Shown here one piece after another: positions 38,901-41,900 of a stretch of 64,000 bases of DNA (within the stretch, counting starts at the first letter, position 1; the number at the start of each line of letters is the position of its first letter). The stretch lies in NCBI RefSeq assembly GCF_041248615.1, contig NZ_CP158426.1; one strand, given 5' to 3'. This DNA is from Escherichia coli (GTDB lineage: Bacteria > Pseudomonadota > Gammaproteobacteria > Enterobacterales > Enterobacteriaceae). The position numbers were made by a program.

Positions 38901-41900
38901 TTGGCAAATACCGCACAAGCAATAGAAAAGAGAAGGTGACCTTCCGCCGTCATGATAAAACTCACTAAACTGTCGATACGTACAGTATAGGATTTTTATA
39001 CAGTGCGCGGAAGTGGTGACGGTGTAACTCTTTCTCTTAAATTGACGATTAATCCGTCAGTTGAATGCAAATTCAGATAAAGAACCAGGAGCAGTGTGAT
39101 CACTGCCCCTGGTCATTAACCGAGAAGGTCTTTTGCGGTGAGTTCTGTCAGCGATGAGAGTTTGACGTTTGCTAATACAAAACGTGGATCATTTTGCGCT
39201 TCTGGCGCAGGAACGACGATGGAACGCATGCGGGCTGCTTTAGAAGCGATCATGCCATTTACCGAGTCTTCCAGCGCCACGCAGGTCAGTGGGTCAACGC
39301 CCAGTTTTGCTGCGCAGTCGAGATATACTTGCGGATGCGGCTTGCTGTAAGGCAGTTTTTCAGCCGAGGCGAGGGCATCGAAACTGTCGCGTAAGTCAAA
39401 CATGGTCAACACTTTTTCCAGCATATGTAGTGGTGACGCGGAGGCCAGTCCCACTAATAAACCTTGTTCTTTGCATAACGCAACAGCTTCGCGCACGCCT
39501 GGTAATAATGGACGCGTCTCTTCAACCAGTGAAATGGCACGGGCAATAACCCGTTCTACTACTTCCTGACGGCTTGGCCCATTCCACGGTTGCCGGGCGT
39601 ACCAAAGATCGACCACCATATCGATGCGTAAACCTAAAGTGTCCGGCAGCTCGTTACGACGGGAGATATCCACCCCCAGGCTTGCCATCACATCCAGTTC
39701 GGCTCGATCCCATAAAGGTTCTGAGTCGATAAGTAATCCATCCATATCAAAAATTGCAGCAAGAATCTGACGCGGGGTTGACATTACAACCTCTCCTTTA
39801 GAGCATTATGTGTAAGGTATTAAGCCGTGCTTATGATTAAGCGCCTATCATATCGCCTTTAAAGAATGGGCGAAAACAGATATCTACAGGTAAACTAAGT
39901 GAAACGACGCGTCTTAATCAAGGAGAACTCATGACGTATCAACAAGCTGGACGCATTGCTGTTTTGAAAAGGATTTTGGGTTGGGTGATTTTTATACCTG
40001 CATTGATCTCTACACTGATTTCTTTGCTGAAATTTATGAATACCCGGCAGGAAAACCAGGAAGGCATTAATGCGGTCATGCTCGACTTTACTCATGTCAT
40101 GATCGATATGATGCAGGCGAATACGCCTTTTTTGAATCTGTTCTGGTATAACTCCCCGACGCCCAATTTTAATGGTGGCGTGAACGTTATGTTCTGGGTG
40201 ATTTTCATCCTGATTTTTGTCGGACTGGCGTTGCAGGATTCCGGTGCCCGGATGAGTCGCCAGGCGCGCTTCTTGCGGGAAGGTGTTGAAGATCAACTCA
40301 TTCTGGAAAAAGCCAAAGGGGAAGAGGGGCTAACGCGTGAACAAATTGAGTCACGTATTGTTGTGCCGCACCATACTATTTTCCTGCAGTTTTTCTCGCT
40401 GTATATCCTGCCGGTTATTTGTATTGCTGCAGGTTATGTGTTCTTTTCTCTGCTGGGGTTTATTTAATCAAAAGGCCGCACGGAGCGGCCATTATCCTCA
40501 CCCCATATTATGCTGCTAATAATCTATCCAGTGACTGCTGAGCAATAACCAAATGCTGACCGCCAAATAACCTTGCACGATTTAACAGCGTGTAGAGTTG
40601 GTAAACCGGTTGACGTTCAAGGAAATCGGCAGGTAGCGGGGATACTGACTGATAGCCGTCATAGATTTGTGGCGGCTGTTCAGTATGCAGCGGTAACATC
40701 GCCAGGTCGCACTCTCGGTCACCCCAGTAGCAGGCCGGGTCGAAAATGTACGGGCCATCCGGACCCAGCGCACAGTTGCCGGACCATAAATCGCCGTGCA
40801 ACAGAGAAGGCTGCGGTTGATGCGAGGCCAGACGCTGCTGAATATGCTCGACGATGGCATCGATATTGCCGAAAGCGATCCCTTTTTCTGCCGCCAGTTC
40901 CAGCTGCCAGCCAATCCGTTGTTCAGCAAAAAAAGTTGACCAGCGACGTTGCCAGGTGTTGGGCTGGGGAGTTGTGGAGAGCGCGTTATCGAAATCGAGG
41001 CCAAATTGCGGTTGGTCGCTCCATTGATGTAAACGCGCAATTTGCTGACCAAGAATAAATGCGCTATGCGCATCCAGCGGGCGAGGTGGGAGATAGTCCA
41101 TCACCAGAAAACTGTAGTCACGGTCAGCGCCAACTGCCCAAACCTTAGGCACGGTGACGGTTTTACTACGCGACAGTAACTCCAGTTGGTCGGCTTCGGC
41201 GGTAAAACCGGGAAGCAGTTCCCTTTCATCACATTTGACGAAAAAGTCACGTCCTGCATAGCGCAAATGCCATGCGGCATGGACTTCTCCGCCAGGCAGT
41301 TCATTACGCAGTTCGATTTCGCCTTCACCTAACTGCTCGCTCAAAAGACGACTGATTGCCTGCCACATGATGTCTCTCCCATGTTGTCTGCCAGATCATA
41401 AGGTTAGCGCAAGAATGCGGTGTAAAAACACGAGCTAACGCACACCACAGACTGATTATTGCCCAAAAACCATTTATTTTCTGTTGCTATTCCATTCCTC
41501 CCAGGTCGTGATGGTGATTTCAGGATCTTTGCCGGTTGCACTTTGGGTAAGCCCCGAAACTAGTTCTCTAATTTCTTCTTCACTTTGGGTACTGATAAGT
41601 CCAAAAGTGTTAGTCCCCAGCTCATGGATATTTCCATCATCATCCGTCATGGTGAGCAAAAAACCGTCGCGAGTCAGGTAATTATTCAACTCGTTAATTT
41701 CAGTCAATGTATCCTCGTGCAACATGACGGTTATGACATAACGGACAAGATCGCCACTGGCCATAGTTCACCCCTTTGTTATCACATGACTTTTGAGCAT
41801 AGTCGGAGAAACGCGTTGCCGACAGGTTGGTGGTGATTCCCCCAATGCAGGGGGAATGTTTCAGTTAGCGGGAAAGGTAAGCGTAAATTTTTTGTGTATC

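Follow-up and report, generated by a model that had tools for sequence, protein, structure and literature searches.

The region upstream of ydjM in Escherichia coli carries a LexA-like palindrome in front of the gene and a partial repeat beside it. The analysis covered 64,000 nucleotides of E. coli chromosome (the window), in which the gene order hxpB-ydjM-tcyP matches that of K-12. According to its open reading frame and the RefSeq annotation, ydjM starts with an ATG at 38953 on the minus strand and encodes 196 amino acids plus a stop codon. Its product matches the Pfam family 'YdjM inner membrane protein' (E = 7e-36), in agreement with the membrane protein gene named in the initial annotation, and is a putative hydrolase of the inner membrane. 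The hxpB gene ends at 39116, and a terminator-like hairpin lies between it and the ydjM control region. The candidate Shine-Dalgarno sequence is located 7 nt before the ATG and reads GTGGG in most other genera. Taken as a whole, the segment 38968-39005 is very probably a tandem LexA operator of ydjM, with LexA binding and LexA-dependent induction taken from the literature.

Features of the ydjM control region in the window
Feature	Positions	Strand	Basis
ydjM coding sequence, the regulated gene	38363-38953	-	Open reading frame, RefSeq annotation, Pfam PF04307
Probable Shine-Dalgarno sequence, GTGAG	38961-38965	-	Inferred from sequence and conservation
LexA box 1, promoter-proximal full SOS box, TACTGTACGTATCGACAGTT	38968-38987	-	Sequence, score, conservation
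Putative -10 hexamer TATACT, preceded by C (CTATACT)	38984-38989	-	Best hexamer pair; overlaps the box 2/box 1 junction
LexA box 2, distal, weak, effectively a half-site, CACTGTATAAAAATCCTATA	38986-39005	-	Score, conservation, listing in PMC4576408
Putative weak -35 hexamer TTCCGC, 17 bp upstream of TATACT	39007-39012	-	Crude hexamer scoring
Conserved upstream block, TTT-GTGAC-AAAGA-GTTACA-C-CGTCACC in most genera	39013-39041	-	Comparison of 80 loci
Terminator-like hairpin just 3' of the hxpB stop codon	39083-39114	-	14-pair stem with 8 G-C pairs

The 20-mer AACTGTCGATACGTACAGTA (38968-38987, plus strand) is separated from the ydjM ATG by 14 nt, and its core is CTGTCGATACGTACAG (38970-38985, plus strand). 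On the ydjM strand the core reads CTGTACGTATCGACAG (38985-38970), a palindromic CTGT-N8-ACAG flanked by TA and TT. The SOS-box consensus has been described as the 20 bp motif TACTG(TA)5CAGTA (PMC6590174), and box 1 shares 15 of its 20 positions with the consensus TACTGTATATATATACAGTA. The initial annotation had proposed an SOS box directly upstream of ydjM; the gene, the orientation and the reading as a LexA operator were right, and the 20-mer falls inside the region 38954-39010 marked there. The box is upstream of and close to the start, as described, with an exact distance of 14 nt in place of the earlier 'within about 30 bp'. The term 'near-consensus' fits the arms but not the central 8 bp.

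The strength of box 1 was estimated with a LexA matrix built from 18 published E. coli SOS boxes (PMC3009722), with ydjM excluded from the training set. With this matrix box 1 reaches 14.8-15.0 bits and an HI of 10.2. A quantitative LexA scan had been set beforehand as the test of the SOS-box reading, a score below threshold speaking against it, and box 1 passes this test. The published HI of ydjM is 9.0, a value that PMC11228462 attributes to Courcelle et al. (2001), and the HI obtained here is below the cut-off of that paper (HI < 14). In leave-one-out scoring, genuine boxes range from 6.7 to 27 bits (HI 0.6-12.8), which puts box 1 in the lower quartile of scores. With its 15 consensus matches, box 1 is a moderate-to-weak operator and not a near-consensus one. 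When the window is ranked by LexA loci, the cho box comes first, box 1 second, a site inside nudG third and box 2 fourth. The cho (ydjQ) box (25867-25886) precedes another LexA-regulon gene and, like box 1 of ydjM, lies 14 nt before the start codon. It is a single box with CTGG/CCAG arms and is the stronger of the two, at 20.7 bits, although it was itself in the training set. The bare pattern CTGT-N8-ACAG occurs three times in the window against 0.55 expected. The count of this pattern was dropped as a criterion because the other two perfect cores, at 87-102 and 6444-6459, score as non-sites (-5.6 and 6.0 bits, respectively).

A site of this strength could in principle arise by chance as a palindrome without regulatory role. 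The per-position probability of box 1 is 2.9e-6, corresponding to 0.18 such sites per 64 kb and about 13 per genome, and at least one site as good was present in 13% of Markov simulations. A 20-mer inside the nudG coding sequence, a chance-level site, scores equal to box 1. These figures concern a single site, whereas box 1 has a second site adjacent to it, lies 14 nt from the start codon, is conserved in 80 of 80 orthologous promoters and precedes a gene with published LexA-dependent expression (PMC11228462). The simulations, the phylogenetic footprint and the expression data together effectively refute a chance origin, to which we give next to no probability.

The adjacent site, box 2, scores 13.2-13.4 bits, of which 11.7 bits come from its left half and 1.7 from its right half. 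The distal half keeps an intact CTGTAT, and the proximal half reads CCTA instead of ACAG. Its per-position probability is 8.5e-6, and 0.55 equally good sites would be expected by chance per 64 kb. Boxes 1 and 2 overlap by 2 nt and are 18 bp apart, centre to centre. A pair of sites within 10-30 bp appeared in none of 300 simulated windows, and from the per-site probabilities about 7e-5 such pairs would be expected per 64 kb. The sequence of box 2 is listed as a LexA site in PMC4576408, which also states that RegPrecise does not list it. For tandem LexA sites at ydjM, the review PMC4951493 cites an experimental report by Fernandez De Henestrosa et al. (2000). The initial annotation had noticed a partial repeat at 38990-39005 that formed no clean CTGT-N8-ACAG site. 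This description is accurate, but the repeat is not incidental, being a documented second LexA box at 39005-38986. The same arrangement is known from Salmonella enterica, whose two ydjM boxes precede the ATG by 14 and 32 bp (PMC8072944), distances identical to those in the window. The stronger Salmonella box has an HI of 9.12 and the weaker one, at 32 bp, an HI of 12.85 (PMC8072944). Our matrix gives box 2 an HI of 9.75 against the published 12.85 for the Salmonella box, absolute HI values being matrix-dependent.

To place the two boxes in an evolutionary context, 80 of 212 matching YdjM-encoding loci were compared, from Escherichia, Citrobacter, Salmonella, Enterobacter, Kosakonia, Raoultella, Atlantibacter and other genera. 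Box 1 is present ahead of ydjM in all 80 loci, with invariant CTG and ACAG arms and a variable central 8 bp. Fixed arms around a drifting centre are the signature that would be expected of a LexA site. Of the 80 loci, 78 retain a recognisable box 2, and in 77 its distance from box 1 is exactly 18 bp; the exceptions are one locus with a 1 nt insertion (L063) and two in which the distal half is lost (L014 and L026). Over the whole operator, 19 of 38 positions are invariant, compared with a baseline of 13 of 190 third codon positions and 0 of 70 third positions in conserved four-fold-type codons. Both sites are therefore subject to strong purifying selection at a constant spacing, and they are not chance occurrences. 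In the two Salmonella loci (L032 and L048), the centre of box 1 is ATGAATTG and the box reaches 19.5 bits, above E. coli box 1, and box 2 begins with T where E. coli has C. The 38 bp operator of the window is base-for-base identical to that of K-12 MG1655, so published K-12 data apply to it, and the tandem boxes of K-12 ydjM (b1728) are the same element with zero operator differences. Single substitutions separate the window strain from K-12 upstream of the operator, for example C for T at 39007.

The conservation of box 2 is confounded as evidence of LexA binding because its proximal half overlaps the putative -10 and the box 1 flank, and its centre contains TATAAA. It could be proposed that box 1 alone is the working operator, and that 'box 2' is conserved as promoter DNA (a TATAAA or TATACT -10, the spacer or an extended -10-like TG) and is unbound in vivo or adds nothing to repression. 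Consistent with this proposal, every locus has CCTA, never ACAG, in the proximal half, which contributes 1.7 bits only; the invariant CCTATACT coincides with the top-scoring -10 candidate; and box 2 is missing from RegPrecise. With TATACT as the -10, however, the invariant ACTGTA (39004-38999) would lie at about -27 to -22, where RNA polymerase makes no base-specific contacts, yet each of its bases is kept in 78-79 of the 80 loci. The 18 bp offset is likewise fixed, recN has the same geometry and a weak third box is accepted there, and the review PMC4951493 cites the experimental report of tandem ydjM sites. An operator of box 1 alone is accordingly improbable, and the tandem operator remains the preferred reading.

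A LexA ChIP study is attributed to Wade (2005). Regarding expression, ydjM is listed as a LexA-regulon member (PMC6590174); a comparison with published regulon data had been proposed in the initial annotation. AZT treatment induces ydjM 2.5-fold, with an 8.6-fold dependence on LexA cleavage as measured with lexA3 (PMC11228462), in support of the DNA-damage induction claimed for the gene. In a DNA-damage time course the ydjM transcript rises by log2 1.5-2.6 (PMC11002266). In Salmonella, ydjM is induced 2.1-fold with nalidixic acid, and a ydjM-gfp fusion gave no detectable fluorescence (PMC8072944). Published induction is modest, at 2.1 to 2.5-fold. The tandem LexA boxes of ydjM are already known, having been in the literature since 2000, and are real, conserved and ordinary. 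What is gained here is that box 1 passes a quantitative test, that the 'partial repeat' is a second operator, and that most Enterobacteriaceae sampled share the two boxes at their fixed 18 bp offset. The importance beyond correct annotation is small, and the promoter architecture is of value only as a handle on the role of YdjM in the DNA-damage response.

Box 1 occupies the sole intergenic space before ydjM and overlaps the best -10 candidate. A consensus sigma-70 promoter scan of 38800-39200 returned nothing at threshold. In the supplements of PMC3415461, which covers transcription start sites of E. coli and Klebsiella, b1728 appears only in an orthologue table, and ydjM is absent from the supplements of PMC7132871 (Shigella transcription start sites); ydjM is probably repressed too strongly in cultures without stress for its start to be detected. 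Because no mapped start was found and the promoter scan was empty, the overlap of operator and core promoter is one that we infer, as is the identity of the promoter hexamers. Sigma-70 hexamers were scored in a crude and approximate way, using consensus-base frequencies. In this scoring TTCCGC-17-TATACT is the best pair (6.7). Positions 38983-38991 around its -10 are invariant in 80 of 80 loci, and CTTCCG is largely conserved.

A different promoter can also be drawn, with GTTACA (39028-39023) as the -35, a 17 bp spacer and CACTGT (39005-39000) as the -10. Both the -10 and the start would then be overlapped by box 2, leaving box 1 as a roadblock at about +7 to +26. Regulator and outcome would not change from the tandem-operator reading; the geometry alone would differ. 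All 80 loci carry GTTACA unchanged, at an indel-free distance of exactly 17 bp from the invariant ACTGT, and the proposed -10 retains its critical bases, A at position 2 and T at position 6. The pair nevertheless falls outside the eight best in the crude hexamer scoring, in which TTCCGC-17-TATACT leads, and the E. coli hexamer CACTGT (TACTGT in most genera) matches TATAAT at only 2 of 6 positions. We regard this promoter as possible but rather doubtful, and TATACT is used as the likely -10 below.

With TATACT as the -10, the tandem operator probably works as follows. In the absence of damage, one LexA dimer would occupy the full palindromic box 1 and another would sit 18 bp upstream, on box 2, held mainly by the distal CTGTAT half-site and probably also by contact with the first dimer. 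Occupancy of box 2 may be cooperative, as its half-site nature and its likeness to recN and colicin operators suggest. Together the dimers would span about 38 bp, covering the likely -10 (38989-38984), the spacer and the probable start, and would thereby exclude RNA polymerase. Upon DNA damage, RecA filaments would stimulate LexA self-cleavage and leave the operator empty, and the weak ydjM promoter would then fire modestly.

Several known operators resemble this arrangement. The lexA and colicin operators each have two LexA sites acting together, like ydjM. In lexA both boxes are full palindromes, set about 21 bp apart, and colicin boxes overlap more than those of ydjM, at about 15 bp centre to centre. 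In colicin genes the ends of a strong and a weak site overlap, and LexA binding is cooperative (PMC4951493). E. coli recN has three LexA boxes, the weak one (13.8 bits) being exactly 18 bp from a stronger one, as in ydjM. The inner half of the weak recN box, facing the stronger one, is degenerate (ATGG, 4.7 bits) and the outer half is intact (9.1 bits), mirroring ydjM. Unlike ydjM, recN carries an additional, very strong third box a further 22 bp upstream, and its weak box lies on the side nearer the gene. Induction also differs, at 19-fold for recN vs 2.5-fold for ydjM (PMC11228462). The Salmonella recN boxes lie at 8, 26 and 48 bp, in agreement with the E. coli spacing (PMC8072944).

The segment 39007-39041, upstream of the boxes, is as conserved as the LexA sites themselves, though the upstream neighbour gene varies between genera. 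Within it GTTACA is invariant and CGTCACC is nearly invariant. An Rfam search of 38850-39200 returned no RNA family, and the block is not a known RNA element. Consensus sequences for CRP, DnaA, sigma-32 and sigma-E were compared by eye with the block; none fits convincingly, and all four were rejected as unsupported. The segment could be a site for an unknown activator or repressor, or could belong to an unusual promoter, for example one with a sigma-S-type CTATACT -10 and an upstream element. Only tentatively, a second, undescribed layer of ydjM control may be suggested; such a layer, if true, would help to explain why induction is only modest when LexA is removed. Equally tentative is the separate suggestion that the full box with an outer half-site 18 bp away, shared with recN, is a general cooperative LexA module. 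The conserved block also carries an inverted repeat, GTGAC...GTCAC, which is present in most genera and broken in E. coli.

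The window is E. coli chromosome, and the 1.6 kb around the ydjM operator was matched in 5,423 of 5,426 complete E. coli genomes with 95–100% identity, annotated with hxpB and ydjM. Because the window is colinear with NZ_OW967178.1, locus and window coordinates are identical. The YdjM protein belongs to the Pfam family 'YdjM inner membrane protein' (PF04307; E = 7e-36). Given the end of hxpB and the terminator-like hairpin that follows it, the 162 bp at 38954–39115 represent the entire ydjM control region. On the ydjM strand, the final 60 nt before the start read ccgcg-CACTGTATAAAAATCCTA-TA-CTGTACGTATCGACAG-tttagtgagttttatc-ATG.

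Features of the ydjM locus in window coordinates
Feature	Coordinates	Strand	Remarks
ydjM	38363-38953	minus	ATG at 38953; product 196 aa
hxpB	end at 39116	minus, same as ydjM	upstream neighbour of ydjM
Terminator-like hairpin	39114-39083	minus	directly after hxpB
Conserved block	39007-39041 (35 bp)	minus	directly upstream of the LexA boxes

The SOS box that the initial annotation placed directly upstream of ydjM (AACTGTCGATACGTACAGTA) is present at 38968–38987 and is referred to here as box 1. It lies upstream of and near the start codon as proposed, with a measured gap of 14 nt to the ATG in place of the 'about 30 bp' given. The bare core CTGT-N8-ACAG occurs three times in the window, compared with 0.55 expected. 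The two other perfect cores, at 87–102 and 6444–6459 inside sppA and gdhA, have −5.6 and 6.0 bits on a LexA weight matrix. Since these cores score as non-sites, the core pattern alone proves little and yields false positives. The matrix and a Lewis-type heterology index (HI) were trained on 18 SOS boxes of E. coli taken from a table in PMC3009722; ydjM is absent from this set. In this quantitative scan, box 1 scores 14.8–15.0 bits with an HI of 10.2, which places it in the lower quartile when the 18 genuine boxes are scored leave-one-out (6.7–27 bits). Among loci in the window it ranks second after the cho (ydjQ) SOS box. A site of this score has a per-position probability of 2.9e-6, corresponding to 0.18 equally good sites expected per 64 kb, and at least one site of this score appeared in 13% of first-order Markov simulations. 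Box 1 has the consensus base at 15 of 20 positions, and of the five that differ, four lie in the central 8 bp; the description 'near-consensus' was thus too strong. Judged from its sequence, box 1 is a genuine LexA operator of moderate to weak strength, in agreement with the published HI of 9.0 for the E. coli ydjM box (PMC11228462).

A second element (box 2), CACTGTATAAAAATCCTATA on the ydjM strand, was identified at 39005–38986 with a score of 13.2–13.4 bits. It shares 2 nt with box 1, and the centre-to-centre distance is 18 bp. The distal half contributes 11.7 bits and the proximal half, with CCTA in place of the expected ACAG, only 1.7 bits. The element had previously been regarded as a partial CAG/CTG repeat (38990–39005); it is indeed not a clean palindrome, but its score is that of a second LexA box. 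The same sequence is listed as a LexA site of b1728 (PMC4576408). Pairs of sites with the scores of box 1 and box 2, 10–30 bp apart, were found in none of 300 simulated windows, and by our own arithmetic from the per-site probabilities approximately 7e-5 such pairs are expected per 64 kb.

A YdjM protein scan of species-representative genomes confirmed 212 relatives, and the best 80 of these 212 loci (85–99% protein identity) were retained. They span Escherichia, Citrobacter, Salmonella, Enterobacter, Lelliottia, Leclercia, Kosakonia, Raoultella, Atlantibacter, Franconibacter, Phytobacter, Trabulsiella, Cedecea, and others. Among these best 80 loci, box 1 was found in all, mostly 13–17 nt from the ATG (21–23 nt in four loci that carry an insertion), and box 2 is recognisable in 78, with an offset of exactly 18 bp upstream from box 1 in 77. 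In Leclercia adecarboxylata NCTC13032 (L063), a 1 nt insertion shifts box 2, and in Citrobacter amalonaticus S646 and Intestinirhabdus alba (L014 and L026) the distal half, or CTGT, of box 2 is lost; box 1 is kept in all three. These natural variants (positions ~1440–1500 of each locus) could be used to probe whether box 2 matters. The arms CTG and ACAG of box 1 are invariant in the 80 loci, and its centre varies (ACGTATCG, ATGAATTG, ATACATCG, and others). Fixed arms with a drifting centre are the pattern predicted by selection for LexA contacts. Over 80 distinct sequences, 19 of 38 operator positions are invariant, against a baseline of 13/190 ydjM third codon positions in the same genomes and 0/70 at conserved four-fold-type codons. 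The statistics of the pair, its position, and the phylogenetic footprint rule out a chance origin of the ydjM boxes.

Conservation falls away sharply upstream of ~39045. The block directly upstream of the boxes is as strongly conserved as the boxes themselves, with GTTACA (39028–39023) and most of CGTCACC-n-CTTCCG invariant in the 80 loci, even though the gene upstream is not the same throughout: Escherichia has hxpB, and most others have another gene ending ...GGCTGGCTGGCGCGTTAA. An inverted repeat, GTGAC-N13-GTCAC, is present in the block in most genera, but in E. coli the left arm of this repeat is disrupted. No Rfam family matched the block. It may be promoter (-35) or UP-element DNA, or the site of a second, unknown regulator.

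A sigma-70 promoter scan of the control region with a built-in consensus returned no promoter. A crude hexamer score selects TTCCGC (39012–39007) as -35 and TATACT (38989–38984) as -10 with a 17 bp spacer, and this candidate -10 with its preceding C is invariant in 80/80 loci. Box 2 might be kept only as promoter DNA; however, the ACTGTA of its distal half would then fall in the spacer, a stretch without base-specific polymerase contacts, yet each base is kept in 78–79 of the 80 loci, and the offset to box 1 is likewise fixed. With the TTCCGC-17-TATACT promoter, box 2 would extend from about -28 to -9 and box 1 from about -10 to +10, and LexA on both boxes would fully occlude RNA polymerase. 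Alternatively, with GTTACA-17-(C/T)ACTGT as the promoter, box 2 would overlie the -10 and the start site and box 1 the early transcribed region; the regulatory outcome is unchanged.

Two LexA dimers would cover 38968–39005. Box 1 would offer a complete palindrome for one dimer, and box 2 one good half-site, with its inner monomer on the non-cognate CCTA. Because this inner half is non-cognate, the second dimer probably needs the one at box 1 in order to occupy box 2. The same layout was seen at recN. The recN operator sequence used for the comparison matches E. coli genomes with 100% identity at the start of recN (matches H21–H23; outside the window). The third box of this operator is weak (13.8 bits), is spaced 18 bp from recN box 2 and, like ydjM box 2 relative to box 1, combines a degenerate inner half (4.7 bits) with an intact outer half (9.1 bits). 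This suggests a recurring LexA module, a full box plus an outer half-site at 18 bp, common to recN and ydjM.

In the SOS system, transcription is blocked by LexA dimers bound at SOS boxes; when RecA forms filaments on single-stranded DNA, LexA is induced to cleave itself and derepression follows (PMC6590174; PMC8072944). The LexA-regulated SOS genes listed in PMC6590174 include ydjM, described there as an inner membrane protein, and tandem LexA-binding sites at E. coli ydjM were experimentally reported by Fernandez De Henestrosa et al. (2000), according to PMC4951493. The 38 bp operator in K-12 MG1655 is exactly that of the window, so published K-12 results are directly applicable. In K-12, ydjM is induced 2.5-fold by AZT and its expression shows an 8.6-fold dependence on LexA cleavage in a lexA3 comparison (PMC11228462). 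The transcript also rises by log2 1.5–2.6 in a DNA-damage time course (PMC11002266). In Salmonella, the two SOS boxes of ydjM (HI 9.12 and 12.85) are 14 and 32 bp away from the ATG, the same distances as measured here, and nalidixic acid induces the gene 2.1-fold (PMC8072944). The element is the already known ydjM tandem LexA operator, the same as that of K-12, and at the sequence level it agrees with every LexA-box criterion testable in this analysis. LexA binding and induction are based on the published work; promoter geometry and cooperativity are the only parts that we infer.

Several other observations were made in the window. The cho SOS box CACTGGATAGATAACCAGCA (25867–25886) lies 14 nt before the start codon of cho (25853, minus strand) and is the top LexA-matrix match (20.7 bits), though it is itself a training site. 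A LexA-like 20-mer, TCCTGAAAAAATAAACAGCA, at 7732–7751 inside the nudG coding sequence has 14.7 bits and an HI of 8.9, on par with ydjM box 1. About 0.25 sites as good are expected per 64 kb, and the 20-mer is probably a chance match because it is intragenic and lacks a partner site. Between pfkB and yniA, the gene at 41474–41764 (minus strand) is annotated by RefSeq as the type V antitoxin endoribonuclease GhoS, with no ghoT-like partner gene annotated beside it; the K-12 record names the gene at this position ydiZ, a putative endoribonuclease. At 44166–46064 (minus strand), an intact type III secretion effector EspL1 is annotated in the matching genome, and the same position in K-12 MG1655, between yniD and thrS, holds the pseudogene arpB.
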